NCBI GenBank assembly: GCA_050248155.1
Contig: JBFWSW010000005.1
Span: 17,578-81,577 of the forward strand
Reading direction: 5' to 3'
Source: Ilumatobacteraceae bacterium
Lineage (GTDB): Bacteria > Actinomycetota > Acidimicrobiia > Acidimicrobiales > Ilumatobacteraceae
DNA: 64,000 nucleotides
Shown: piece by piece, positions 4,037 to 62,968 of the stretch
Numbering within the stretch: position 1 is the stretch's first letter
Layout: the number at the start of each line of letters is the position of its first letter
Program-made: the position numbers and the translations under genes
Notes under the pieces: model-generated
Seen by the model: the letters and a program-made list of their open reading frames with translations, nothing else
Told to the model about the DNA's origin: nothing
Database searches by the model: none

Positions 4037-7000
4037 TTCCGTCGGCGGTGCCGTCATCTCCGGGGCGACGGCCACCCCGTCACCGCCCGTGCGCTTCGCG
4101 GTGTACATCGCATGGTCGGCGGCCATCAGCAGCGCGTCCGGGTCGGCCGTCCCACCCCGCTGGTGGGCGACGCCCACGCTGGCGCCGAGGTGCACGGTCA
4201 CCTCGGCGACCGACAGCGGCACACCGATGCTCTCGACGATGCGTCGTGCGATCGAGAGCGCTCCGGCCCTGTCGGTCTCGGGGCAGAGCACGACGAACTC
4301 GTCACCGCCCGTGCGCGCGACGGTGTCGGAAGGACGCGCGAGCGATCGGAGGCGGGAGGCGACGACCTGCAGCACCTCGTCACCGACCGCATGACCCCAG
4401 GTGTCGTTCACCTCCTTGAACCCGTCGAGGTCGATCAGCAGCACCGACACGTCGTTCGTCGCTCCCCGTCGAGCGGTCGCGACCTCGAGGCGTGAGTGCA
4501 GCAGGATCCGGTTGGCCAGACCGGTGAGCGGATCGTGGAGCGCCTGCCGCTCGAGCTCGGCCTCGAGACGCTTCCGTTCGGAGATGTCGCGCACGCTCGT
4601 GCGGTACTCCATCGCTCGGCCGGTCGCCGGGTCGAGCACCTTCGACGTGGAGTTCACCACCCACACCGCACTGCCGTCGGCGCGGAGCAAGCGCATCTCC
4701 GAGCTGAACGACCCGGTCGCCTCGACCTGCACGCCCGCGGCCACGACGGCAGCTCGATCGGCCGGATGGACGAGGTCGCGCCAGTGCGAACCGATCAGCT
4801 CGTCCGGGCTCCGGCCGACGAGGAAGGTCGACGAGGGCGACACGTAGGTGATCACACCGTCGCCGTCGAAGAGCACCACCACATCGGCGGCGGTCTCGGA
4901 GAGCAGGCGGAACCGGGCCTCGCTCGAACGCAGGGCGGCGTCGAGGAGCGACCGCTCGAGCACGTGGCTGATCGTCTCGGCAACGATGCGCAAGAACGCC
5001 ACGTCGTCGTCGGTCCAGCTCCGTGCGCGACCGGCCATCGAGACGCCGACCACGCCGAACAGCTCACCGTTCGAGACCATCGGCACCGCCATCATGCCGC
5101 CCTCGACCCCCATCGAGTCGCGCTTCTCGACCACCCAGGCCTCGTCGCACCCACGCGCGTCCGATACGACGATCTGCCCGGGCTGTCGCAGGCGCTCGAT
5201 CCAGTGAGGGATGGAGTCGAAGGTGACCGCTTGGCCCCGCTCGAGGCCGGGCGGGACGCCCGCACGGATCCACCCGGCGAGGTTGACGAGTCGCTGCTGG
5301 TGCTCGTCCAACCGGTCGACGTACACGTAGTCGACCTCGAGCAGGTCGCCCACCTGTGCGCCGATCTCGGGGAGGTGTTCGATGAACTGCCCGGCATCGC
5401 GGTCGAGCGCGAGCTGGGCCACGTCGAGCAGCACACCGAGGCGCGCCTCGCTCGATCGTAGCGACGTCTCCACCTGTCGACGCGCGAGCAGCGCCGAGAC
5501 GGTGGCCGACGCGCGTTGCACGATCGCGATCTCCGGTCGGGTCCACTCGCGGACCTCGGTCGCCATCGCGACGCCGAGGTTCCCGAGGCATCGGCCTTCT
5601 GACACGAGGGGCACGTTCAGGCCGGCGCGATCGGGTACCGGGAAGGAACGCCACTCGTCGGCCCACGGTTCGTCGTGCTCCTCGATGTCGCTGACGACGA
5701 GCGGTTCGAGCGTCCGGTAGCGAGCCACGATGGCAGGCATGGTCGGCCCGTCGTCAGGGAAGACGTAGGCCCGCTCGTCGCCGCTCGCCGACCAACCTGC
5801 CACGTTGCGTACGGAGTCCCCGTCGAACAGCGCGGCAAAAGCGACGTCGGCCCGCATCGCGCGGCCGAGGTGCTCGAGGTGGACGTGCAGCCCGTTGATG
5901 ATGTCGTCCGGTTCGACCTCGAGCGCCCACTGCGACAGATCGAGGACCACACGCTCCAACTCGGCCTGGCGATCCGCGTCGGCCATCGACGCGTGGATGA
6001 GCGACATGTTGCGCATCGAGACGAGGTAGCCGCCGAGCAGCTCGTCGTACTCGCCCGACGTGTCGGCGTCGAACCAGACGTAGGAACCGTCCGCATGGCG
6101 CACTCGGAGCTCGGTCACCGGCAGCTCGCCTCCGGCCAGCGTCTGGGCGAAGCTGTCGATCGCGACGGAGTGGTCGTCGGGGTGGACGAGCTCGAGGAAG
6201 TGACGATCGACCACGTCGGTGGGCCGATGACCCAAGATGACCTGGGCCTGATCGTTCACGTACTTGATCGTGCCGGAGGCGTCGAGCACCAGCAGGACAT
6301 CGCTCAAGTTGGCCAGCATCGCCGTGAGGCGCCGTTCGCTCAAGGCGAGCGCATCGGCCGCGCGCTGGCGAACCAGCAAGTTGGCGAGGGTGTCGGCGAC
6401 CTGGGAGATCGTGTCCAGCTCGTCGTCGGTCCAGCGGTGCTCGGGGTCGACGGTGCCGACGACCAGCACACCGAGCAGCTCGCCCTCGACGCGCAGGGAC
6501 GCGAAGATGCGACCAGCGCTCTCGATCCCGGGATAGGTCTGGCGCAGCTCGACGGCCCAGTCGTCGGTCGACGACGCGTCGAAGAACGCCATGCCACCCT
6601 CGGCCAACCGCGCCACCCACCTGGGGAGCAGATCGACCGACACCTCGTCGGGCAACGCAACCGGCGGGTACCTCGGGCTCGACCAGTGCGCGATCGATCG
6701 CACCCGGCGGGTGTCCATGTCGATGCTGTTCACGTTCAGCCGATCGGCGCGGATCAGCGCGCCGAACCGGGCCAGCACCTCGTCGAGGTCGTGGAGGAAC
6801 TCGTTGCTGCTGCGATGCATCGCACCGTGCGCCACGTCGGCGGCGAACGTACCGAGCTCACGCCGTCGCTGCTCGACGCGCGTGCGCTCGTTCTCGTCGG
6901 TCACGTCCCGGCTGACAGCCGCGAAGATGCGAGTGCCCGGCCGCAGCGGATCCTCCACGACCTGGACGTCCATCACCACCTCGGTCCGGCGGCCCGAGCC

Positions 7001-29309: not shown

Positions 29310-32300
29310 TCAGCTGCAGCCGCTGGTGCTGCCGCAGCTCGGGCAGGCGTGGCACGAGCCGGCGCGGATCATCTGCACGCCGCACTGCATGCACATCGGC
29401 GCGTCGGACTGGCGCGGGCGGGTCGCCCCACTCGGGTTGGTGACGTCGTTGTTCGGAGCGTCGGGCGCGACACCGAGGTCGAGCTGGGTCTGCAGCTCGG
29501 ACACGGACGGCACCGACTTCGGATCGGGCGCCAGCTCGGATCCGTTCGAGGTCTCGACCACGCTCTCCTCGACGCCGGGCAGCGTGGGCTGCAGGCGCTC
29601 GTTCACCGAGAAGATGCCGAGCTCGGCGCGCTCGTCGTAGGTCATGTACTCGAGCGCCAGGCGCCGGAACAGGTAGTCCATGATCGACGAGGCGAAGCGG
29701 ATGTCGGGATCGTCGGTCATGCCGGCCGGTTCGAAGCGCATGTTGGTGAACGCCTCGACGAACGCTCGCAGCGGCACGCCGTACTGGAGGCCGTAGCTGA
29801 TGCTCTTGGCGAAGGCGTCCATGATGCCGCTGAGCGTCGAGCCCTGCTTCGACACGGTGAGGAAGATCTCGCCCGGTCGCCCGTCGGCGTACTCGCCGAT
29901 GTTGGCGAAGCCCTTGCAGTCGGCCACCCGGAACTCGAAGGTGCGCGCCCGCCGGGTGCGCGGCAGCTTCTGACGCACCGGCTGGTGGACGATCTTCTCG
30001 ACGATCTTCTCGATCACCTGCGTCGCGGCCTGCTCGGGCGCGTCGGCCGCGCCGTCCTTCTTGGCCGTGCTGAGCGGCTGGGCGACCTTGCAGTTGTCGC
30101 GGTAGATCGCCACGGCCTTCAGGCCGAGCTCCCAGCTCAGCTGGTGCAGTGCCTCGACGTCTTCGACCGAGGCCTCTTCGGGCATGTTGACCGTCTTGGA
30201 GATCGCACCCGACAGGAACGGCTGCGTCGCGCCCATCATGCGCACGTGGCCCTCGTAGTGGATGGTGTTGTCGCCCATCGAGCAGGCGAACACCGCGATG
30301 TGCTCGGGCGCGAGGTGCGGCGCGCCGAGGATGGACTTCTCGGCGTCGATGTAGGCGACGATCTCGTCGACCTGCTGGGGCGTGTAGCCCAATCGGCGCA
30401 GCGCCCTCGGGATGGTCTGGTTGACGATGACCATCGTGCCTCCGCCCACCAGCTTCTTCATCTTGCACAGCCCGAGGTCGGGCTCGATGCCGGTGGTGTC
30501 ACAGTCCATCATCAGGCCGATGGTGTTGTGGCTGACGAAGCCGTTGGCGACATAGGTGACGTTGGCCGGAACGGACAGGTCGTAGGTGAGCTCCTCGTCC
30601 CCCAGCTCGGCGGTGGCCACTTCGTCGACGAAGAACCCCATCAGGTGGGCGAGCTCTGCATCGGCCGAGGCGGCGAGCAACTGCTCGGCGAGCCGGCGCG
30701 TGATCGTGCCTGAGCGGCGGTGCTCCATGAGGGCGACCGTGCGGTCGCGACCAGCGAGCGGCGCCACCCGATCGATGAGCTCGCGGCTGACCGGGATGTG
30801 ATCGTGCCGAGCCGACTGCGCGATGTCGCGCACGTCGACCTTGGCCCACTTGCGTTGCGAGATGAAGCCGATGTCGTCGAGCCACGCCTGGTTGCACGCA
30901 CGGTTCAACAGCCGGACGACGTGGAGCTGAGACCCGCGACCGCTCGTGCCCTGCGACCGGGTCGTGACGAAGCCGAGCGCGAGCAGCAGCGTCTGGACCT
31001 CGGCCGCGAACCCCTTCAACGTGGTGGTCCACGACGGGTAGCCGCTGACCACCGTACCGTCCGCCTCGAACAGGCCGCGAACGAAGGCTCGGTACACACC
31101 GGCGTCGTTGGTGTGCAGCACGGCGTCGGGGATGTGCGGCACGTACCCCTTGCCACTGTGACCCTCACGCGGCAGTCGCTTGGCGAAGCCCGACGCGGCC
31201 CACCACTCGGCCAACCGAACGGAGTGGAAGGCGACCTCGATGTAGCCGCCCTTGGCCGCCACCGCTGCGGTCAGACCGAACAGCTCCTTGCCGAGCCACT
31301 CGAGGTGGGCGACGACGTCGAGATCGTTCGCGTCGACGCAGAACCGCAGCCCGCGAGCGTGCAGCGAACCGTCGCCCATGAAGTAGCCGATCAGCTCGGC
31401 GAGGTCGGCGTCCATGGTGCGCGGCACGCTGACGTGGTGCTCGCCTGCCCACGCCATCTGCTCGGCGAGTGGCGGGAGCACGACCTCGTTCGGTGAGCCG
31501 ACGAGGCCGCCGAGCCGCATCGGCACCCGATCGCCGGCGCGGAGGTCGGCGAAGCGGCGCCACACCCACTGGCCCGACTCGTCGATGACCTTGATGCGGT
31601 GCTTCGTGGTGCCCTGGATCTGGTACCCACGAGCCGTCGTGACATCGACGACCTGCTCGAGACCGTTGACGTAGAACTTGGTGGCATCCCGCTCGCCCTC
31701 GTCGGTCTGGACCTTGAACGAGACGTCCTGCCACTGCGCACCGTCGGGATCGCCGAGCGTCGCCAGCCGGACCAATCCCTTCGACGTCATGACGAGCGAG
31801 CCACCGACGAGGCAGCCCGTGGGAGCCAACACCGAAGCCTGGCTGTTGCGCACGCCGTACTCCTCGCCGTCGCGCACCGCGGCTTCCCACGCCTCCTGCC
31901 CTGCCCGAACCAGGGCCTCGGGAACGGCGTCGGCGCCCTCGATCGCATATGACGCGTCGCGGTGCATGCGCAGCACGTTGAGCATGTGCACCTCGTTGTC
32001 GGCGAAGCCGGCGAAGGGACCCATGCGGCTGGCGGTGCGCGCGCTGGTGGCGTACGCATGCCCGGTCATGAGCGACGTGAGCGCTGCTGCCCATGCACGC
32101 CCCTCGACCGAGTCGTAGGGCAGACCGAGCGCCATGAGCAGCGCGCCGAGGTTCGCGTAGCCGATGCCGAGCTGACGGAACTTGCGGCTGGTCGCGGCGA
32201 TCGGCTCGGTCGGGTAGTCGGCCCGGCCGACGAGGATCTCCTGCGCGGTGAAGATCGTCTCGACGGTGTGCATGTAGGCCTCGATGTCGAAGCTGTCCTC

Positions 32301-34646
32301 GCCGACCGAGTCGAGGTCGAGGAACTTCAACAGGTTGATCGACGCGAGGTTGCACGCCGAGTTGTCGAGGTGCATGTACTCGCTGCAGTTGCGCACCACG
32401 ACGCCGTTCGCGACGTAGCTGTGGTTGCGCGGCTCGCTGAGGTTGTAGGTGAGCTCGACGCCGTCGTCGGTACGTGAGACCAGCCGGGTGGTGCTCTGGT
32501 GCTTGGCGTAGAACCGATGCTCGGCGAGGAGGTTTGCCAGCTTGTCGCGCTTGGAGCCGACGGTGAAGCCGACGACATCGGCGAACCGCCGGATCGAGCC
32601 GGCGGAGATGCGCAGGTCGAACATCGGGCCGGCGCTGTACGTCTGCTCGTCGCCCGCCACCGTCGTGTACGGGAACACGCCGCCGACCGAGGACGTGCGG
32701 GTGGCGTAGATCGAGCTGGAGATGCCGAGCGTGGTGAGCAGTCGCTGTGCGCCCTGCAGGAGCCGCTTGGAGGCCGAGCCGAGACCGACGTATCGGCTCT
32801 TGACACCGTCGTACACACAGCCGTCGGCGTCGAACAACCCGCGCAGGAACGCTGCGACGACCTCGCTCGGCGCCTCGTTGATCGCCCACGGGACGACCTT
32901 CTCGGCAGCCCGCGAGTCGCTGACCCCGAGCGCACAGAGCTGGGCAGCGAAGGCCCGACGCCCGGATCGCAGCTGCACCGTGCCGTTGGCTTGCACCGAC
33001 GGCTTGGGCACCGAGCCGCCGATGTCGGTCAGCAGGAGGCGATGCGCCGGCATCACGTCGTCGCGGTCGTCGGCGTTGCCGTACACGGTCGTCACCATGT
33101 CGCCGCTGATCGCTCCGTCACCGACGAGCCAGCCGAGATAGTGCCCCAGCTCCTCGGTCCACTTCTCCGGCAAGGCCAATGATGTCGCGAGGCGGCGGTC
33201 GCCGGCGACGAGCGACGCTGCATCGGAGGCCACCGGGAGCGCCCACGACGCGTGGACGGCCGGCGTCGCGTGGTTCAAGATGCGGACGTCGTCGTCCGGC
33301 GTCAGGTTCTCGGCCTCGACGTACCCACGATTCGCGGTGAAGATGCGGTGGCCGGCGGTGCAGCGCAGCTCCATCCCGTTGGAGAACTCCAACCGGACGA
33401 TCTCGTTCACGCCGGTGACCATGATCGCCTCGGGGCTGGTGACCTCGACTCGGTCGGCTGGCGCGTCGGGGCTCGTGACGTCGTGGGTGTACACGCCGAA
33501 GGACTCGCCCTGGCGCGCCCGATCGAGCAGGTCGACGAACGACACGAGGCCCTTGTCGGTGTGGACGAGGGTGTCACCGGTGAAGCATGGGTTGGATCCG
33601 TTGATGCGACCGGTCGTGTGCGCGGTGTGCCACTTGTTGATGGTGGTGTCGAACTGGAGGCCCGGGTCGGCGCACTCCCACGAAGCCTGGGCGATCTGGC
33701 GCCACAGATCGCGAGCGCGCACGGTGCGGATGACCGAGCCGTCGAGCACGGCTCGGTAGTGCCAGTCGGCGTCGTCGACCACCGCTTGCATGAACTCGTC
33801 GGTGACGCGGACCGAGTTGTTCGCGTTCTGGTACTGGATGCTGAAGCTGTCGGCGCCGTCGAGGTCCATGTCGAACCCGGCGTCGCGCAGCACGCGAGCC
33901 TTGCGCTCCTCTTTCACCTTGCACCAGATGAACTCTTCGATGTCGGGGTGGTCGGCGTTGAGGATGACCATCTTGGCGGCGCGACGCGTCTTGCCGCCGC
34001 TCTTGATCGTGCCGGCCGACGCGTCGGCGCCGCGCATGAAGCTGACCGGCCCGCTGGCCGTGCCACCGCCGTTCAACAGCTCGTAGCTGGAGCGGATCTT
34101 CGACAGGTTGATGCCCGAGCCCGACCCGCCCTTGAAGATGACGCCCTCTTCCCGGTACCAGTTGAGGATGCCGTCCATCGTGTCGTCGACGGAGAGGATG
34201 AAGCACGCGCTCGCCTGCTGCGGCACGCCCTTCACGCCGATGTTGAACCACACCGGGCTGTTGAACGCGGCGCGCTGGGTGATGAGGATGTACTTGAGCT
34301 CGTCGCTGAAGGTTTCGGCCTCGGCCTCGTCGACGAAGTAGCCGCCCTCGCGACCCCACTCGGTGATCGTGTCGACCACGCGATCGACGACCTGGCGCAA
34401 CGACGACTCGCGCTCGGGTGTGCCCTGCGTGCCGCGGAAGTACTTCTGCGCCACGATGTTGGTGGCGTTCAGCGACCAGCCGACCGGGAACTCGACCCCG
34501 AGCTGCTCGAAGGCGACCGAACCGTCCTTCCAGTTCGTGATCCTGGCGTCGCGCCGCTCCCATGCCACCTGGTCGTACGGGTGTTGGCCCGGCGTCGTGA
34601 AGTGCCGCTCGAGGCCGATGGAGAGACGTTCGGGCGCCAGGGACAT
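29310..34646 (-). CDS. nrdJ: Class II (adenosylcobalamin-dependent) ribonucleotide reductase, interrupted by two inteins
   Basis: ATG 34646 (MSLAPERLS) is preceded by AGGAG. Extein blocks are FILSVDDTMDGI, GGSGSGINLS, GSNP|CSEYMHLDNSACNLASINL and LAPTG|TIGLMMDCDTTGIEPD. A C-terminal Cys-rich tail is present. The exteins sum to 948 aa. Confidence 0.95.
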   Translation of the reverse strand: MSLAPERLSIGLERHFTTPGQHPYDQVAWERRDARITNWKDGSVAFEQLGVEFPVGWSLNATNIVAQKYFRGTQGTPERESSLRQVVDRVVDTITEWGREGGYFVDEAEAETFSDELKYILITQRAAFNSPVWFNIGVKGVPQQASACFILSVDDTMDGILNWYREEGVIFKGGSGSGINLSKIRSSYELLNGGGTASGPVSFMRGADASAGTIKSGGKTRRAAKMVILNADHPDIEEFIWCKVKEERKARVLRDAGFDMDLDGADSFSIQYQNANNSVRVTDEFMQAVVDDADWHYRAVLDGSVIRTVRARDLWRQIAQASWECADPGLQFDTTINKWHTAHTTGRINGSNPCFTGDTLVHTDKGLVSFVDLLDRARQGESFGVYTHDVTSPDAPADRVEVTSPEAIMVTGVNEIVRLEFSNGMELRCTAGHRIFTANRGYVEAENLTPDDDVRILNHATPAVHASWALPVASDAASLVAGDRRLATSLALPEKWTEELGHYLGWLVGDGAISGDMVTTVYGNADDRDDVMPAHRLLLTDIGGSVPKPSVQANGTVQLRSGRRAFAAQLCALGVSDSRAAEKVVPWAINEAPSEVVAAFLRGLFDADGCVYDGVKSRYVGLGSASKRLLQGAQRLLTTLGISSSIYATRTSSVGGVFPYTTVAGDEQTYSAGPMFDLRISAGSIRRFADVVGFTVGSKRDKLANLLAEHRFYAKHQSTTRLVSRTDDGVELTYNLSEPRNHSYVANGVVVRNCSEYMHLDNSACNLASINLLKFLDLDSVGEDSFDIEAYMHTVETIFTAQEILVGRADYPTEPIAATSRKFRQLGIGYANLGALLMALGLPYDSVEGRAWAAALTSLMTGHAYATSARTASRMGPFAGFADNEVHMLNVLRMHRDASYAIEGADAVPEALVRAGQEAWEAAVRDGEEYGVRNSQASVLAPTGCLVGGSLVMTSKGLVRLATLGDPDGAQWQDVSFKVQTDEGERDATKFYVNGLEQVVDVTTARGYQIQGTTKHRIKVIDESGQWVWRRFADLRAGDRVPMRLGGLVGSPNEVVLPPLAEQMAWAGEHHVSVPRTMDADLAELIGYFMGDGSLHARGLRFCVDANDLDVVAHLEWLGKELFGLTAAVAAKGGYIEVAFHSVRLAEWWAASGFAKRLPREGHSGKGYVPHIPDAVLHTNDAGVYRAFVRGLFEADGTVVSGYPSWTTTLKGFAAEVQTLLLALGFVTTRSQGTSGRGSQLHVVRLLNRACNQAWLDDIGFISQRKWAKVDVRDIAQSARHDHIPVSRELIDRVAPLAGRDRTVALMEHRRSGTITRRLAEQLLAASADAELAHLMGFFVDEVATAELGDEELTYDLSVPANVTYVANGFVSHNTIGLMMDCDTTGIEPDLGLCKMKKLVGGGTMVIVNQTIPRALRRLGYTPQQVDEIVAYIDAEKSILGAPHLAPEHIAVFACSMGDNTIHYEGHVRMMGATQPFLSGAISKTVNMPEEASVEDVEALHQLSWELGLKAVAIYRDNCKVAQPLSTAKKDGAADAPEQAATQVIEKIVEKIVHQPVRQKLPRTRRARTFEFRVADCKGFANIGEYADGRPGEIFLTVSKQGSTLSGIMDAFAKSISYGLQYGVPLRAFVEAFTNMRFEPAGMTDDPDIRFASSIMDYLFRRLALEYMTYDERAELGIFSVNERLQPTLPGVEESVVETSNGSELAPDPKSVPSVSELQTQLDLGVAPDAPNNDVTNPSGATRPRQSDAPMCMQCGVQMIRAGSCHACPSCGSTSGCS
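30525..31814 (-). mobile_element. NrdJ intein 2 (430 aa, LAGLIDADG endonuclease domain)
   Basis: Starts CLVGGSLV after LAPTG and has block B TTKH. The LAGLIDADG motifs are LIGYFMGDGSL and VRGLFEADGTV. It ends FVSHN and is followed by +1 Thr (TIGLMMDC). Confidence 0.9.
32388..33587 (-). mobile_element. NrdJ intein 1 (400 aa, LAGLIDADG endonuclease domain)
   Basis: Starts CFTGDTLV after GSNP and has block B TAGH. The LAGLIDADG motifs are LGWLVGDGAI and LRGLFDADGCV. It ends VVVRN and is followed by +1 Cys of the NPCSE motif. Confidence 0.9.
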
Positions 34647-34725
34647 GAGGACTCCTAGAGTGGTTCGGCGAGTGATGCGGGCGGCTTGCGAGGTGTGCGG
34701 CCAGGCTCTCGACCGCGGAATCAGA

Positions 34726-34784
34726 ACCACAAGATGTGGTGGCAGGCCGACCCCCGAACCGGCGAGCACCACAACATGTGAGGT
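34726..34784. promoter_or_regulatory. Two CCACAA-N2/3-TGTG palindromes in the nrdJ leader
   Basis: ACCACAAGATGTGGT lies at 34726-34740 and ACCACAACATGTGAGGT at 34768-34784. These are candidate operators (NrdR?). Confidence 0.45.
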
Positions 34785-34798
34785 GTTGAGGGCTATGA

Positions 34799-34828
34799 AA
34801 ATTACAGCAATGTAATTACACCTGTCAA
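34799..34828 (-). promoter_or_regulatory. Putative nrdJ promoter: TTGACA - 18 nt - TAATTT
   Basis: The minus strand reads TTGACAggtgtaattacattgctgTAATTT. This is the only AT-rich patch in the region, about 150 nt upstream of the ATG. Confidence 0.55.
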
Positions 34829-34853
34829 CGATCGGCGCGGGCTTTTTGTTCCT

Positions 34854-34878
34854 GGGCGCTCCGTGCTTCGGAGCGCCC
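34854..34878. other. Perfect 10-bp stem / 5-nt loop hairpin GGGCGCTCCG-tgctt-CGGAGCGCCC
   Basis: Read directly. It lies just upstream of the nrdJ -35 element and has no U-tract on either strand. Confidence 0.6.
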
Positions 34879-35125
34879 GACAGCGGGCGAGCGGCTGCCC
34901 GGTCGCAGGTAGGAGGACCTTGCCCCACAACGTGTCCGATCCTTGGCCCGATCACCCGATCGACGTTGACCATCCGCGCCGTGCACCGCTGCCCGCTGCA
35001 GCCGCCGACAGTAGGACCACCGTCCTGTGGGGAGAAAGAGGGACAAGGCTGTGAATTTCGCTGTGGAGGACCGCCACAACCTGTGGGCGACGCGCGGCGC
35101 ACCGGCGATGACATGATCGTCGGTC

Positions 35126-35785
35126 ATGCGCCGGCTGCATCCCCACCCAGTGGAGCGAATCGGGGTCCTCGAGGCCTACGACGTCGATCGGCCGCGCCCG
35201 ACGAGCCGTCCCTGGCTCGAGCTGTGCATGGTCGCGAGCGTCGACGGGTCGACCGTCATCGACCACCGATCGGGTGCACTGTCGAGCGACGCCGATCGAG
35301 AGGTGCTCTCCACCCTGCGCTCGCTCGCCGATGTCATCATCGTCGGCGCCGGCACCGTCCGCGCCGAAGGATACGGACCTCCACGCAAGGCCGGTCAACG
35401 CATCGGCGTCGTGTCCCGGCGCGGCGACGTCGACCTCACGACCCCACTGTTCACGAGCGGTGCAGGGTTTCTGATCGTCCCTCGTTCGGCACCCCCGCTG
35501 GCAGTCGACACCGTGCGTGCAGGCGAGCACGACGTCGACCTCGTCGAAGCCCTCGCCCAACTCGACGCCGACTTCGTGCACGCCGAGGGAGGCCCGTCGC
35601 TCAACGCGGCGCTCGCCGAGGCCGACGTGATCGACGAGCTCAACCTCACGATCAGCCCGCTGCTCGCAGGAGGGACCGGGCCGCGCGTCACGGCGGGGGC
35701 CGCCCAGTTCGTCCGCTCGCTCGAGCTCGCCCACGTGCTCGAGGACGCGAGCTTCTTGTTCACGCGCTACGTGCGTCGTCGCTAG
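35126..35785 (+). CDS. RibD C-terminal domain / dihydrofolate-reductase-like pyrimidine reductase family protein
   Basis: 219 aa, containing CMVASVDGS ... ADVIIVGAGTVRAEGYG ... LTISPLLAGG. Confidence 0.7.
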   Translation: MRRLHPHPVERIGVLEAYDVDRPRPTSRPWLELCMVASVDGSTVIDHRSGALSSDADREVLSTLRSLADVIIVGAGTVRAEGYGPPRKAGQRIGVVSRRGDVDLTTPLFTSGAGFLIVPRSAPPLAVDTVRAGEHDVDLVEALAQLDADFVHAEGGPSLNAALAEADVIDELNLTISPLLAGGTGPRVTAGAAQFVRSLELAHVLEDASFLFTRYVRRR

Positions 35786-36339
35786 CGAGCCTCGACGTCG
35801 GTGCTCTCTCCAGTCGCGCCCTCGCGACGGCGGTGGCGTACCACATCGGGCCGATCGGCCGACCACGACAACGTGTCCCAGGCGTCGTCACGAACCTGCT
35901 GCCACGCAGCCTCGGCGACCAGCAGCTCGAACATCGGCGACCCGGCGAGCGGTTCCGGATCGAGGTCGTGCGCCGCGCAGAACGCGCGCAGCGTCCGGTC
36001 GGCCGACTCGGGATCGAGCTGATCGAGGCGACCCACCAGCTTGCCCTCCCCCGCCAGATCGTTCCGGTCGGCGATCGGCGCCAGCAACGAGACTCGCGGG
36101 TCGCGCAGCACGTCGGCGTGCTTGCGCGATCCGGGCATCATGCCCATGTACAGCCGACCCTCCACGAACGACACCTCGATCGGGCTGACCCGGGGCCACC
36201 CGTCGAGCCGGGTCGTGCCGAGGATCCCCAACCCGGCAGCGGTCAGCCGCTCGGAGATGGGTCCGGCGACGGCGGGAGCAGCGGCGAGGAACTGATCAAA
36301 GGTCAACATGCCACCATCGTGCCGATCGGTCACTGACAC
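35782..36339 (-). CDS. Pyridoxamine 5'-phosphate oxidase family protein
   Basis: 185 aa, containing GILGTTRLDGWPRVSPIEVSFVEGRLYMGMMPGSRK. The start is possibly MLTFDQF at 36309. Confidence 0.65.
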   Translation of the reverse strand: MSVTDRHDGGMLTFDQFLAAAPAVAGPISERLTAAGLGILGTTRLDGWPRVSPIEVSFVEGRLYMGMMPGSRKHADVLRDPRVSLLAPIADRNDLAGEGKLVGRLDQLDPESADRTLRAFCAAHDLDPEPLAGSPMFELLVAEAAWQQVRDDAWDTLSWSADRPDVVRHRRREGATGESTDVEAR

Positions 36340-36343
36340 CTTC

Positions 36344-36365
36344 TGTCAGCCACCTCGGATACCGT
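36344..36365 (+). promoter_or_regulatory. RecA-NDp-like promoter motif TGTCA-N11-TACCGT ahead of the WYL regulator (predicts a leaderless mRNA)
   Basis: TGTCAgccacctcggaTACCGT ends 7 nt before GTG 36373. Confidence 0.45.
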
Positions 36366-36372
36366 TCCGGAG

Positions 36373-37386
36373 GTGCGTGCCGGTCGCCTCGTCCAGCTCG
36401 TGTTGCTGCTCCAACGCAGCGGGCACGTCACGGCGGCGTGGCTCGCTCACGAGCTCGAGGTGTCGGTGCGCACCGTGTACCGCGACATCGAGGCGCTGAG
36501 CGGCATCGGAATCCCGGTGCTCACGTCGAGCGGACCCGGTGGCGGGGTCAGCTTGCTCGACGGCTACCAGACGCGACTCACGGGGCTGACCGGCGCCGAA
36601 GCCGGCGCGCTGGGACTCGCGGGAGTGCCCGAGGTGGCCGCGCAACTCGGCATGCGGTCACTCCTCATGGCCGCGCAGGCAAAGGTGGATGCCGCGCTGC
36701 CCCCGGAGCTCCGGCAGCGGTCGATGCGGCTGCGCGAGCGGTTCCTCGTCGACGCCCCGGGCTGGTTCGAGCAAGCCGACCCGCCGACCTTCCTCGAGCC
36801 GATCAGCGCTGCGGTGTGGGACGGCCGGCAGCTCGAGATCCGCTACGAGCGATCGGGCACGGTCGTGCGGCGCCGCGTCGATCCGCTCGGCCTGGTCCTG
36901 AAAGGTGCGCGTTGGTACGTGGTCGCGGTCGGCCGGCGTCCGGCGGGGCTGCGGCTCTACCGCGTCGACCGCGTCCGGGGCGTGCGCACGCTCGCCGACG
37001 CAGTCGTCCGGCCCGATGGCTTCGACCTCGCGATCGCCTGGGGTGAGCTCGGTCGCGACTTCGACCGGCACCTCCGACGTGTCGCCGTGCGCATCGCGAT
37101 GCCGGCCGACGAGCTCTGGCGGCTCCGCCACGCGTTGACCGGGCCCGCCGCAGAGGAGGCCGCGTCCACGGCGAGCGACCATCCCGATGGGCGGCGGGTC
37201 ATGACCGTTCACTCCGAGTCGGTGGAGGTGGCCCACGACGAGCTCGTGCGTCTGGGTCGGCACGTGGAGGTGCTCGAACCACCCGAGCTTCGTGCGATGC
37301 TCGCCGAGACTGCGACGGTGATGGCTGAACGCCACCGAGGCCAGGTGACCGCCGCGGTCAGGCGGGCGCCGACTGCAGCTTCTTGA
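36373..37386 (+). CDS. HTH-WYL-WCX transcriptional regulator (PafB/PafC-like, YafY family)
   Basis: The N-terminal wHTH reads VTAAWLAHELEVSVRTVYRDIEAL. The WYL domain reads LEIRYERSGTVVRRRVDPLGLVLKGARWYVVAV ... LRLYRVDRV. A C-terminal extension follows. Confidence 0.85.
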   Translation: MRAGRLVQLVLLLQRSGHVTAAWLAHELEVSVRTVYRDIEALSGIGIPVLTSSGPGGGVSLLDGYQTRLTGLTGAEAGALGLAGVPEVAAQLGMRSLLMAAQAKVDAALPPELRQRSMRLRERFLVDAPGWFEQADPPTFLEPISAAVWDGRQLEIRYERSGTVVRRRVDPLGLVLKGARWYVVAVGRRPAGLRLYRVDRVRGVRTLADAVVRPDGFDLAIAWGELGRDFDRHLRRVAVRIAMPADELWRLRHALTGPAAEEAASTASDHPDGRRVMTVHSESVEVAHDELVRLGRHVEVLEPPELRAMLAETATVMAERHRGQVTAAVRRAPTAAS

Positions 37387-37869: not shown

Positions 37870-38247
37870 TCAGGGCAGCGAGAGCCGCTGGCCGACGTCG
37901 ATCCGGGTACCACCGTTCAGCGTGACGAGCGCATCGACGACCTCGGCCGTGTCAGCGTCGGGGTATTGGTGCTCGGCGATCGACCAGAGCGTGTCACCCG
38001 ATTGGACGACATAGGTCACGGATCGGCCGATCGTGGGGACGGAGGCAGGGTCGTCCCCCCGATCGGCCAGACCGTGTTGGGTCACCGACACGAGCGACAC
38101 CACGAACGTCACGACGAACGCCAGCGCGCCGACGCGCCGGCGGACGTAGGTGGCCCGTGAGCGCCGATGGCCGGCGAGCCCTGCCGGGAGGCGAACCTGG
38201 AAGTGGTCGTGCTGGCGACCCGACGTGGGGGCAAAGGTGATGGCCAT
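37870..38247 (-). CDS. LysM-domain membrane protein (ChiZ/Rv2719c-like position)
   Basis: Internal ATG 38247 (MAITFAPT) is preceded by GGAAGGA. The product has a TM helix ALAFVVTFVVSLVSV and a C-terminal LysM YVVQSGDTLWSIAE ... GQRLSLP. It is divergent from lexA. Confidence 0.75.
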   Translation of the reverse strand: MAITFAPTSGRQHDHFQVRLPAGLAGHRRSRATYVRRRVGALAFVVTFVVSLVSVTQHGLADRGDDPASVPTIGRSVTYVVQSGDTLWSIAEHQYPDADTAEVVDALVTLNGGTRIDVGQRLSLP

Positions 38248-38297
38248 GTCGTTCCGGGTCCTTCCTCGATCGGCGGGCCCGTTCGGCCGGGGAGGAC

Positions 38298-38311
38298 CGA
38301 ACGGATGTTCG
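38298..38311. promoter_or_regulatory. LexA (Cheo/SOS) box CGAACGGATGTTCG
   Basis: Perfect GAAC-N4-GTTC with flanking C/G. Confidence 0.8.
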
Positions 38312-38313
38312 CC

Positions 38314-38342
38314 AGTATGCCGAACGCATGTTCGTCCGTCAA
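38314..38342 (-). promoter_or_regulatory. Putative LysM-gene promoter TTGACG - 17 nt - CATACT with a Cheo box in the spacer
   Basis: The minus strand reads TTGACGgacgaacatgcgttcggCATACT. Confidence 0.55.
38321..38334. promoter_or_regulatory. LexA (Cheo/SOS) box CGAACGCATGTTCG
   Basis: Perfect GAAC-N4-GTTC. Confidence 0.8.
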
Positions 38343-38351
38343 GCCCACGAT

Positions 38352-38365
38352 CGAACGCGCGTTGC
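38352..38365. promoter_or_regulatory. Degenerate Cheo-like box CGAACGCGCGTTGC
   Basis: The left half-site is perfect; the right half is GTTG. Confidence 0.4.
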
Positions 38366-38366
38366 A

Positions 38367-38380
38367 CGAACGAATGTTTG
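38367..38380. promoter_or_regulatory. Near-consensus Cheo box CGAACGAATGTTTG
   Basis: One mismatch in the right half-site. It overlaps the lexA -35 element. Confidence 0.6.
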
Positions 38381-38406
38381 ACCTGGCGAGCGAACACGCG
38401 TACGCT
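38378..38406 (+). promoter_or_regulatory. Putative lexA promoter TTGACC - 17 nt - TACGCT (leaderless arrangement)
   Basis: The -10 element ends 7 nt before ATG 38414, and no SD-like sequence lies in between. Confidence 0.55.
38391..38404. promoter_or_regulatory. Degenerate Cheo-like box CGAACACGCGTACG
   Basis: The left half-site is perfect; the right half is GTAC. It overlaps the lexA -10 element. Confidence 0.4.
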
Positions 38407-38413
38407 GACCCAC

Positions 38414-46073: not shown

Positions 46074-48206
<2,133 letters not shown>

Positions 48207-48276
48207 CTGCTGCTCCGTTCCTGCCTGATGTTGAGGGTGAGGACCGAGTCGCACGGCCCCGATTGCTGTGAGCGGC

Positions 48277-48298
48277 ACCATACGGAGCGGGTGTGACA
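48277..48298 (-). promoter_or_regulatory. RecA-NDp-like motif TGTCA-N11-TATGGT, proximal recA promoter candidate
   Basis: The minus strand reads TGTCAcacccgctccgTATGGT. The -10 element ends 70 nt upstream of the recA ATG. Confidence 0.45.
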
Positions 48299-48388
48299 GG
48301 GTTTCGCTGACCCTGCTGGCCCTGACCGCCGATCGAGTTGATCGGCAGTGCTTCGAATGATCCACGATGACGTCGTTCGAACGACAGC

Positions 48389-48417
48389 AGTGTAGTTACG
48401 AACAACTGTTCGATCAA
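48389..48417 (-). promoter_or_regulatory. Distal recA promoter candidate TTGATC - 17 nt - TACACT with a Cheo box in the spacer
   Basis: The minus strand reads TTGATCgaacagttgttcgtaacTACACT. Confidence 0.6.
48399..48412. promoter_or_regulatory. LexA (Cheo/SOS) box CGAACAACTGTTCG
   Basis: Perfect GAAC-N4-GTTC, about 190 nt upstream of recA. Confidence 0.8.
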
Positions 48418-48566
48418 GCATCGGTGCTCGTTGCGACGAAGAGCGCCGGATGCGGACCAGACGAGCGCCGAACTTGCGGGCTCTCGACCAGGGCGGGACG
48501 ATTCGCCCGAAAGTGATCCGAACGACCCATACGGCCGACGGCGTGGTCCGCCTAGGGTCGGATTCG

Positions 48567-50723
48567 GTGAAAGTCGGCGGCAGCGGAGCTCGTCGGCGCC
48601 GTCCACTGCTGCTGAGCCTTGCGACCGTCGGTCTCGTCGCGGGCGCAGCCGCGCTCGTGCCCGATGCTCGGCCGCAGATCGCGACGGCGACCGGTGTCGA
48701 TCTGTCTCGCATCGTCAACCCCGTGCCCGCGTCGTGGACGCCCGGCATGGTCGACGGGCGAGTCTTCGCCGTCGCGCAGGTCGGTGACCAGATGGTGGTC
48801 GGGGGCTCGTTCAGCGCGGTGGAGCGAAACGGCCAGCAGGTCTCACGAAGCGGCATCGTCGCCTTCGACGCCACGACCGGAGTGATCAACACCGGCTTCC
48901 ACCCACAGCTGAACGGTGACGTCGAGGCGCTGCTGCCCGGCCCGGTCGACGGGACGGTGTACGTCGGCGGGTCGTTCACCACCGTCGACGGAGCGGCGCG
49001 CCCTCGGCTCGTCCTGCTCCGGGTCGCCGACGGCAGCCGGGTCACCACCTTCGACGGCGCGACGATCCCGACCGGCACGGTGAAGGACATCGAGCGTGTC
49101 GGTGGGCGGCTGTTCGTCGCGGGCACCTTCACCCAGGTCTCCGGCATCTCGCACCGAGGACTCGTCGCCCTCGATGCGACGACCGGCGACGTCGATCCGT
49201 ACGTCGGGCTCTCGTTCACCGGACACCACAACTACGACGGCACCGGCGCGATCGGGGGTGTCGGACCAGCCGAGCTGGCGATCTCGCCGGACGGTTCGAC
49301 GATGGTCGCGATCGGCAACTTCACCGACGTGTCCGGCGCGTCGCGAGACCAGGTCGCCATGATCGACCTCGGGGCGAGCGCCTCGACCGTTCGGGCGAAC
49401 TGGAACACCAACCGGTACACCCCGCCGTGCGATGCCGAGCTGTACGACAGCTACATCCGCGACGTCGACTTCTCCCCCGACGGCAGCTACTTCGCGATCG
49501 TCGCGGTCGGTGACCGGTCGGAGGGAACCCTCTGCGACACGCTGACGCGCTGGGAGACCACGGCGACCGGTGCCGACGTCCAACCGACCTGGATCCTCGA
49601 CTCGGGCGGCGACACCCTCTCGGCGGTCGCCGTCACCACCGGTGCGATCTACGTCGGCGGCCATCAGCGATGGCTGAACAACCCCGACGGTGCCGACTTC
49701 GCCGGGCCTGGCGCCGTGCCACGACCCGGACTCGGCGCGGTCGACCCGGTCGCCGGACTGCCCCTCGAGTGGAACCCCGGCCGCAACCCTCGCGGCATCG
49801 GTGTCTCGGCGCTCCACGTCACGCCGGAGGGGCTGTGGGTCGGCTCCGACACCGACTGGATCGGCGATCGCCAGTACGAGCGACCGAAGCTCGCGTTCTT
49901 CCCGATCGAAGGTGGCGAGGTTGCGCCGACCGGCCAGTCGCCCGAGCTACCGGGCAGCGTCTACGTCGCGACCGATCAGCTCCGCCGCAGCGGGTCGAAC
50001 GGCACCGTCTTCACCACACCGTCGACCGTCACCACGAGCGGCGGCATGTCGTGGTCGACGGTGACCGCTGCCGTGCAGATCGACGACGTCCTCTACTACA
50101 CCCGGTCGGACCGGATGCTGTACCGCCGCACCTTCGACGGCACCACCTTCGGCCCACAACAGTCGATCGATCCGTACAACGACCCGATCTGGTCGAACGT
50201 CAACACCGGATCGGGCAACCTCTATCGCGGCGCACGACCCGACTGGTACGACGAGCTGCCGTCCCTCACCGGGATGGCCTACCGCAACGGCAGGCTCTAC
50301 TACACCCTCGCCGGCAGCTCACGCCTCTACTACCGGCGCTTCTCGCCGGAGAGCGGCATCGTCAGCGCGGAGCGATTCGAGGCGCCGGGCGTGACCCTCA
50401 GCGGCACGACGGGCATGTTCCTCGACGGCGATCTGCTCTACACCGTGGCCGCGTCCACCGGTGCGTTGTCGGTGAGATCGTGGAACGGCGGGCTTCCCGG
50501 CGCGGCGAGCTCGGCGGTCAGCGGTCCGGCGATCGACGGCATCGACTGGCGAGGGCGTGCGCTCTTCGTGGGACCGGCCGGGCCCGACGTACCGCCCGAC
50601 GACCCCAACGGCCCGACGCTGCCGACCACGCCGGTGACTCCGCCCGCGACCCCAGCGCGCCAGATCGAGGCAGCGGCACGCTCCGACGACCTCGCGCCTG
50701 CCGTGCGGCTCGGCGCACCCTGA
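48567..50723 (+). CDS. Secreted repeat protein, beta-propeller type
   Basis: GTG 48567 gives VKVGGSGARRRRPLLLSLATVGLVAGAAAL (signal-like). Repeated units resemble GGSFt.V.G..R..lv.LD..TG. The C-terminus is Pro/Thr-rich. The start is uncertain (the track ORF begins at 48450). Confidence 0.65.
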   Translation: MKVGGSGARRRRPLLLSLATVGLVAGAAALVPDARPQIATATGVDLSRIVNPVPASWTPGMVDGRVFAVAQVGDQMVVGGSFSAVERNGQQVSRSGIVAFDATTGVINTGFHPQLNGDVEALLPGPVDGTVYVGGSFTTVDGAARPRLVLLRVADGSRVTTFDGATIPTGTVKDIERVGGRLFVAGTFTQVSGISHRGLVALDATTGDVDPYVGLSFTGHHNYDGTGAIGGVGPAELAISPDGSTMVAIGNFTDVSGASRDQVAMIDLGASASTVRANWNTNRYTPPCDAELYDSYIRDVDFSPDGSYFAIVAVGDRSEGTLCDTLTRWETTATGADVQPTWILDSGGDTLSAVAVTTGAIYVGGHQRWLNNPDGADFAGPGAVPRPGLGAVDPVAGLPLEWNPGRNPRGIGVSALHVTPEGLWVGSDTDWIGDRQYERPKLAFFPIEGGEVAPTGQSPELPGSVYVATDQLRRSGSNGTVFTTPSTVTTSGGMSWSTVTAAVQIDDVLYYTRSDRMLYRRTFDGTTFGPQQSIDPYNDPIWSNVNTGSGNLYRGARPDWYDELPSLTGMAYRNGRLYYTLAGSSRLYYRRFSPESGIVSAERFEAPGVTLSGTTGMFLDGDLLYTVAASTGALSVRSWNGGLPGAASSAVSGPAIDGIDWRGRALFVGPAGPDVPPDDPNGPTLPTTPVTPPATPARQIEAAARSDDLAPAVRLGAP

Positions 50724-61224: not shown

Positions 61225-62968
<1,744 letters not shown>

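Follow-up and report, generated by a model that had tools for sequence, protein, structure and literature searches.

The 64-kb window analysed here, a 64,000-nucleotide stretch of an Ilumatobacteraceae contig with a G+C content of 69.5%, carries a gene for a WYL-type transcriptional regulator at positions 36373-37386 (+), which is read from a GTG start codon and encodes 337 amino acids. The predicted protein consists of a winged helix-turn-helix (wHTH) domain at residues 8-56 (36394-36540; Pfam HTH_11, E = 2.3e-12), an Sm-like, ligand-sensing WYL domain at residues 140-205 (36790-36987; Pfam WYL, E = 2.8e-18) and a C-terminal WCX dimerisation domain at residues 236-317 (37078-37323; Pfam WCX, E = 1.5e-11). 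This agrees with the layout of wHTH, WYL and C-terminal extension that an earlier interpretation made from the sequence alone (the sequence-only reading) had assigned to the product. The start codon is supported by an MRA(S/G)RL N terminus that lines up in 30 homologues, and also by independent gene calling on the contig, which arrives at the identical GTG. In an AlphaFold2 (AF2) monomer model (predicted local distance difference test score 81.8), the two helices of the HTH span residues 21-28 and 32-44, and the recognition helix contains the family-invariant residues V30, R33, T34, Y36, R37 and D38. No NCBIfam model matches the regulator, whose homologues are labelled “YafY family” or “WYL domain-containing” in their sources, and a profile search of all six frames found no second WYL gene in the window.

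Divergent from the regulator, across a gap of 63 nt, is a small gene at 35782-36309 (-) that encodes 175 amino acids from an ATG at 36309 and is referred to below as the cargo gene. Its product is a pyridoxamine-5′-phosphate-oxidase-like (PPOX-family) protein of the split-barrel flavin/F420 type (Pfam PNPOx_N, E = 9e-9). The independent gene call likewise gives a product of 175 residues, and NCBIfam models for F420-dependent PPOX-class proteins match it only below their cut-offs.

Within the gap, an inverted-repeat finder identifies a perfect 6+5+6 repeat, CTGACAccttcTGTCAG, at 36333-36349, which a pattern search also recovers and which is the predicted operator (CTGACA-ccttc-TGTCAG). Extending the arms to 11 nt each (36328-36338 and 36344-36354) leaves 82% of the positions complementary. 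This is the single match to the palindrome in the window, with no mismatches, and no other appears even when two mismatches are allowed. The right arm contains the TGTCA element (36344-36348) on which the sequence-only reading was built, and the spacing described there is indeed present: 11 nt further on is a -10 hexamer, TACCGT (36360-36365, +), which is followed after 7 nt by the GTG at 36373. A putative -10 hexamer for the cargo gene, CACGAT (36316-36321, -), lies 12 nt past the left arm and 6 nt before the ATG. The palindrome is therefore flanked by two promoters that are apparently leaderless, back-to-back and symmetric, and we infer a transcription start site at each. If the GTG at 36373 is taken as +1, the right arm occupies -29 to -25 and the left arm -39 to -35, and the PPOX promoter mirrors this arrangement. 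No sigma-70 -35/-10 pair was detected around the palindrome. The geometry of the regulator promoter, with a GTC element, an interval of 11 nt, a TAnnnT -10 and no recognisable -35, is that of promoters dependent on PafBC, the mycobacterial DNA-damage activator.

The same arrangement can be followed through related genomes. A scan for homologues, limited to one genome per species, yielded 80 loci with regulators 44-56% identical to the one in the window, distributed among Acidimicrobiia, Nocardia, Rhodococcus, Streptomyces, Kitasatospora, Nonomuraea, Actinoplanes, Chloroflexota and one Bradyrhizobium. The closest relatives, at 50-64% identity, come from Acidimicrobiia (Ilumatobacteraceae, Desertimonas, Acidimicrobiales), and Microthrixaceae are also represented among the genome loci with homologues. 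In 67 of the 80 loci, the 130 nt that precede the regulator contain the palindrome TGACA-N5-TGTCA with at most one mismatch, and the same pattern occurs only 10 times in the remaining 981 kb of these loci. The operator consensus is tccCTGACAtCttcTGTCAGgga, which can also be written tccCTGACA-N5-TGTCAGgga. A literature search for this operator together with WYL returned nothing specific. In many of the Streptomyces, Kitasatospora and Streptosporangiaceae loci (L008-L030 and others), the operator reads CCACTGACA-N5-TGTCAGTGG, with an arm, TGTCAGTG, that matches the published core TGTCRgtg of PafBC/RecA-NDp exactly.

On the cargo side of these operators, 64 of the 67 loci have an nAnnnT hexamer at a distance of 11-12 nt from the arm, which takes the form TAnnnT in 41, and in 51 of the 67 a start codon comes 6-7 nt past the hexamer. 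Any other offset between arm and hexamer scores 5 or fewer. The regulator side is looser: nAnnnT is found 10-12 nt from the right arm in 40 of the 67 (TAnnnT in 18), and a start codon follows within 6-7 nt in 33. The pairing that is invariant is therefore that of the operator with the cargo promoter; the geometry on the regulator side, as seen in the window, is frequent but optional. Because relatives keep the same promoter geometry as the window, a leaderless transcript and autoregulation, which the sequence-only reading had raised as possibilities for the regulator gene, are likely here.

A divergent neighbour gene accompanies the regulator in 71 of 79 loci, although its identity changes. 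The neighbour families (at about 5400-6000 in the extracted loci L001-L080) are PPOX, DUF3224, NIPSNAP, GST (in Bradyrhizobium) and two small families of about 150-170 amino acids without a Pfam match, one of which has a conserved FDFL.GTW motif. A PPOX homologue is divergently adjacent in 15 of the 80 loci, including the three Acidimicrobiia and many Nocardia, and also in Rhodococcus and Embleya. The PPOX-family gene of the window is likely to be a regulated target of the WYL regulator. By contrast with the divergent gene, the other neighbours do not travel with the regulator: tblastn finds no nrdR, lexA or LysM gene within 6 kb in any of the 80 homologous loci, so a conserved linkage to these genes was rejected. 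A RibD_C gene was rejected as part of the module, being seen only in copies of this same contig, as was an AlkZ-like gene, which is seen only in L091, a locus from a related Acidimicrobiia genome of 3.8 Mb, and, farther away, in L028. The conserved unit thus consists of two genes only, regulator and cargo, and together with its operator the regulator forms a portable module with interchangeable small cargo genes. Its place between nrdJ and nrdR/lexA in the window is incidental.

In L091 (2271-3966, -), the AlkZ-like gene (PF06224) comes after the PPOX cargo gene and is read in the same direction. PF06224 is a family of interstrand-crosslink DNA glycosylases, and this neighbour hints that the module is linked to genotoxin defence in that genome.

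Similarity searches place the regulator among several characterised factors without assigning it to any of them. With the single sequence as query, the fused PafBC of A. aurescens is retrieved at 6e-10, PafC at 5.6e-5, DriD at 9.4e-4 and PafB at 1.1e-3; with a family profile, the values are 1.3e-14 for PafC, 1.7e-11 for DriD (over the full length) and 9.4e-11 for PafB. Foldseek with the AF2 model ranks DriD best (9e-14), followed by PafC (7e-13) and PafB (1e-11), and finds BrxR and CapW at about 1e-8 with 13-18% identity. Neither sequence nor fold brings the regulator nearer to PafB or PafC than to DriD. From the search scores, the Foldseek order and the lack of an NCBIfam match, it is a separate branch of the wHTH-WYL-WCX superfamily.

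Comparison with PafBC shows both why the resemblance was noticed and where it ends. PafBC is a heterodimer whose genes lie next to and downstream of pafA, as part of the Pup-proteasome locus (PMC8223512), and is the sole heterodimeric WYL factor reported (PMC11804915). It recognises the motif tGTCgg-N10-tA-N3-T at promoters without a -35, where the GTC triplet at -23 to -28 is read by the PafB HTH through R46 and R50, and the PafC HTH contacts sigma domain 4 (PMC8635444). The regulator shares with it (PDB 6SJ9, 7P5X, 9FND) the wHTH-WYL-WCX layout, which is however common to the whole superfamily, as well as a GTC element exactly 11 nt upstream of a TAnnnT -10 without a -35, and conserved arginines of the kind that bind single-stranded DNA (ssDNA). 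Unlike PafBC, it is encoded by one gene rather than by two paralogues or a fusion, and this gene is not beside pafA. It has a palindromic operator, of which only the right arm, together with the -10, resembles the asymmetric PafBC motif. Its conserved target would be the neighbouring gene, as opposed to a regulon of about 150 genes. Sequence, structure, the number of genes and their context all led to the rejection of PafB/PafC orthology. Neither the Pfam-scanned open reading frames nor the gene calls in the 10 kb around the WYL gene include pafA, pup or prcAB, which confirms the earlier observation that the gene stands apart from pafA and the proteasome genes, between PPOX and nrdR. R33 and R37 of the recognition helix are spaced like PafB R46 and R50, and one might guess that the two pairs are equivalent; the family HTH consensus alone did not retrieve PafB from the PDB.

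DriD of Caulobacter crescentus, a homodimeric WYL activator that is switched on by ssDNA (PDB 8TP8; PMC10853764, PMC13004042), offers a parallel for the operator. Its site, ATACGAC-N7-GTCGTAT (PMC10853764), is a palindrome with a GAC-N7-GTC core, as is CTGACA-N5-TGTCAG, and DriD also has a site in its own promoter and a WYL R-x-x-R-x-x-R motif that aligns with that of the regulator. The two differ in that identity is only about 20%, the half-site flanks are ATACGAC in DriD and cCTGACA in the present family, and DriD governs a DNA-damage regulon of several genes, recA and didA among them, which it activates by means of a three-helix bundle that contacts the C-terminal domain of the RNA polymerase alpha subunit and the beta subunit.

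The functional precedent is provided by SiwR (MSMEG_1359), a homodimer that activates an adjacent dinB-like operon in Mycobacterium smegmatis from a 19-bp palindrome between the -35 and -10 of the divergent operon, requires the -26 region and binds ssDNA (PMC10693628). Like SiwR, the regulator is a single wHTH-WYL-WCX gene divergent from small genes of a stress or detoxification type, with a palindromic operator just upstream of the -10 that covers the -26 region, a conserved pair of WYL arginines, and probable coexistence with PafBC in genera that are credited with it. The cargo, however, is of PPOX, DUF3224, NIPSNAP or GST type, compared with DinB_2, DUF664 and glyoxalase-like proteins for SiwR, and no DinB-type neighbour was found among the neighbour representatives scanned, of which two small families lack a Pfam match. 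CTGACA-N5-TGTCAG also differs from the imperfect 19-bp palindrome of SiwR, which has a conserved GGA, and the operator of the present family serves two symmetric leaderless promoters. BrxR and CapW (PDB 7QFZ, 7T8K, 7TB5) are homodimers that share the HTH-WYL-WCX architecture and have inverted-repeat operators in their own promoter regions. They are nevertheless more distant, and they are phage-defence repressors, whereas no defence operon (BREX, CBASS) lies near the regulator. A GTC half-site at this distance from the -10 is, then, common to several characterised wHTH-WYL-WCX factors, and because PafBC, SiwR and DriD all share it, the resemblance to the RecA-NDp motif is informative about mechanism rather than about identity.

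The WYL domain itself gives an indication of the ligand. Its motif R194-x-x-R197-x-x-R200 is invariant in the family, and in a hidden Markov model (HMM) alignment these three arginines fall opposite R198, R201 and R204 of M. smegmatis PafC. By the same approach, R197 and R200 also fall opposite the equivalent arginines of A. aurescens PafB and PafC and of DriD (R-x-W-R-x-D-R); the corresponding pair in SiwR is R204/R207 (PMC10693628). Mutation of these arginines in PafBC abolishes both ssDNA binding and activation (PMC11804915). Since the arginines that align with those of PafBC are invariant in the family, ssDNA is most likely the ligand of the regulator's WYL domain.

Taken together, these features point to a stand-alone local homodimer resembling SiwR and DriD that would act as a ligand-dependent activator of its cargo gene and of itself, an interpretation to which we assign a probability of roughly 0.7. 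Dimerisation, binding to the palindrome, activation rather than repression and the ssDNA effector are all parts that we infer. In such a scheme, the two HTH domains of the homodimer would bind CTGACA-N5-TGTCAG (36333-36349), and a single dimer could cover approximately -39 to -25 of both back-to-back leaderless promoters, neither of which has a -35. This position would correspond to the “-26 element” of PafBC and to the site at which sigma region 4 would otherwise sit, so that one HTH would take the position of PafB and the other that of PafC and sigma region 4. Binding of an effector to the WYL domains, most likely ssDNA arising from genotoxic or oxidative stress, would enable the dimer to aid RNA polymerase at the cargo promoter and, in the present case, at its own promoter as well.

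Conceivably, although this is a tentative extension with perhaps little prospect of being right, the symmetric dimer could act on both promoters in a manner resembling sigma adaptation, with the proximal HTH serving as a PafB-like reader of the -26 element and the distal HTH at -35 docking sigma region 4 as PafC does. The family would then represent the ancestral state, from which PafBC would have emerged through gene duplication and loss of an operator arm, and the PafBC half-site motif TGTCRgtg-N8-TAnnnT would descend from the palindrome by losing one of its arms.

The motif scan of the window bears on how far the system extends. TGTCR-N11-TANNNT has three matches in the 64 kb, compared with 0.33 expected, and none of 100 shuffles reaches three. 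One is the regulator promoter; a second, at 48277-48298 (-), lies before recA; the third, at 61342 (-), is antisense within a coding region and was set aside as a probable chance match. The recA match, TGTCAcacccgctccgTATGGT, is 71 nt upstream of the recA ATG (48206), and the scan thus bears out the earlier observation that the arrangement recurs there. It is, however, a lone half-site without a left arm, a P1-type element that falls outside the regulator system and lies downstream of LexA boxes, two of which precede recA (region 48206-48420, -; for example TCGAACAGTTGTTCG at about 48399-48414). The element is kept as (T/C)GT(C/G)ACACCCC-N6-TAyGGT in six other Acidimicrobiia (L085-L090, upstream of position 1501), with the short form TGTCACACCCC. 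In L087, the base at its centre is inverted (TGTGACA); the sequence TGTnACA also forms a short palindrome of its own. The base after TGTCA in the family operators is G in 58 cases, A in 7, T in 2 and C in none, and the mirror position behaves alike; the C that the recA element has at this position is thus present in 0 of 134 operator half-sites. In a related genome, moreover, the regulator homologue (with a PPOX cargo gene) and recA are some 840 kb apart. On account of the lone half-site, the C after TGTCA and this separation, recA is most likely served by a factor other than the regulator, presumably canonical PafBC. Acidimicrobiales carry a pupylation locus (PMC3511204), to which pafBC is normally linked (PMC8223512). 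The recA element appears to be a version of the RecA-NDp/PafBC promoter that is peculiar to the class Acidimicrobiia. The recA gene (46074-48206, -) carries a LAGLIDADG-type intein and encodes about 710 amino acids, compared with about 350 in relatives, and divergent from it (48450-50723, +) is a gene for a 757-residue protein with a weak match to the DUF5122 beta-propeller.

The strongest competitor to local activation retains the same regulator and operator and reverses the sign: the dimer would occlude both promoters, and a WYL ligand would release it. The WYL repressors BrxR and CapW work by occlusion, which ligand binding to the WYL domain relieves, and they are structural relatives of the regulator in the Foldseek search. 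Several observations weigh against activation and lend this alternative some substance. Repressors, too, classically bind inside the core promoter, and the operator here covers about -39 to -25 of both promoters; in 13 of 69 loci the operator abuts the start codon of the regulator, and in L091, where the cargo-side geometry is intact, only 4 nt separate it from the -10 of the regulator, both of which would suggest autorepression in those loci. In addition, the cargo-side -10 of the window (CACGAT) is weak, and since a poorly conserved -35 is common in high-GC actinobacteria, the missing -35 is only slight evidence for activation. On the other hand, the fixed spacing of 11-12 nt between arm and -10 (64 of 67 loci) fits activation that depends on the face of the helix, whereas occlusion would need no such constancy, and this spacing equals that of PafBC-activated promoters (PMC8635444). 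The closest relatives, DriD and PafB/PafC, and the functional precedent, SiwR, are activators, and no -35 is present to drive the basal transcription that a repressor would control. Repression thus seems a minority possibility, considerably less probable than local activation.

The sequence-only reading had gone further, suggesting a possible single-subunit version of the PafBC circuit in this neighbourhood. Spelled out, and tied to nrdR, lexA and recA, this would mean a homodimer that serves as the LexA-independent master activator of the DNA-damage regulon in this organism, at TGTCA-N11-TAnnnT promoters that include its own and that of recA. In its favour are the presence of TGTCR-N11-TANNNT at both promoters, at a frequency above expectation, the conserved ssDNA-binding arginines, the proximity of nrdR, lexA and recA on this contig, and the fact that a homodimeric WYL factor, DriD, can control recA (PMC10853764). 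The comparison of loci makes this proposal unlikely. What had been taken for the motif is one half of a palindrome that is present in 67 of 80 loci, and the conserved partner of the regulator is a divergent small gene, with nrdR, lexA or LysM in none of the 80 and recA at a distance of some 840 kb in the related genome. The recA element lacks the left arm and has, as TGTCACACCCC in seven Acidimicrobiia, a base found in no operator half-site; the window contains a single operator; and the protein resembles DriD no less than it does PafB or PafC. The family is also found in Chloroflexota and Bradyrhizobium, and in Nocardia, Rhodococcus and Streptomyces, which are credited with canonical pafBC. 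The pupylation locus of Acidimicrobiales (PMC3511204), the usual partner of pafBC (PMC8223512), also counts against it, and a master activator of this kind is improbable. Even more remote is the notion that the motif in the regulator promoter is a functionless chance match. The pattern is short and degenerate, and the intragenic match at 61342 illustrates how it can arise by chance; the recurrence of the palindrome across phyla, at a fixed spacing to the -10 and start codon, effectively refutes this explanation.

The local, SiwR/DriD-like reading has consequences beyond this locus. Because a GTC half-site with an 11-nt spacing is common to at least PafBC, SiwR, DriD and the present family, a RecA-NDp/PafBC motif in front of a WYL gene does not by itself mark a DNA-damage master regulator. 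The locus in the window is most likely an ordinary local stress switch rather than a one-subunit master regulator of DNA repair. Homodimeric local WYL regulators are already known as a class, and the family is best classified as an uncharacterised addition to it. It is a large addition that crosses phyla, made up of portable regulator-plus-cargo modules with a sharply defined operator and a bidirectional leaderless promoter, and such a module provides a clean system for asking whether sigma adaptation extends to homodimeric WYL factors. Separately from the regulator, the recA element indicates that the RecA-NDp-type recA promoter reaches Acidimicrobiia, with TGTCACACCCC as its class-specific form.

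The wider surroundings of the regulator are metabolic or housekeeping in character, with no defence genes, and PADLOC returns generic WYL matches only. The nrdJ-nrdR-lexA neighbourhood described from the sequence alone is present in this window: the minus strand carries the intein-containing nrdJ, the PPOX-family gene, nrdR and a LysM gene, whereas RibD_C and lexA are encoded on the plus strand. The nrdJ gene (29310-35114, -), which encodes a class II ribonucleotide reductase, contains two intein/LAGLIDADG insertions. Between it and nrdR is a block composed of RibD_C, PPOX and WYL genes (35126-37386). In actinobacteria, nrdR and nrdJ are often adjacent or co-transcribed, and for this reason the block looks like an insertion that has split the two genes. 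The 3′ ends of the regulator (+) and nrdR (-) converge and overlap by 29 nt (37358-37386).

Further downstream, TGTCGGTG at 38083 was considered as a RecA-NDp site and rejected, as it lies within coding sequence and has no -10. The divergent intergenic region between the LysM gene and lexA (38248-38413) has no RecA-NDp motif, only LexA boxes, in the form of several GAAC-N4-GTTC-like sites. The arrangement of the LysM gene and lexA matches that of Rv2719c and lexA in mycobacteria.

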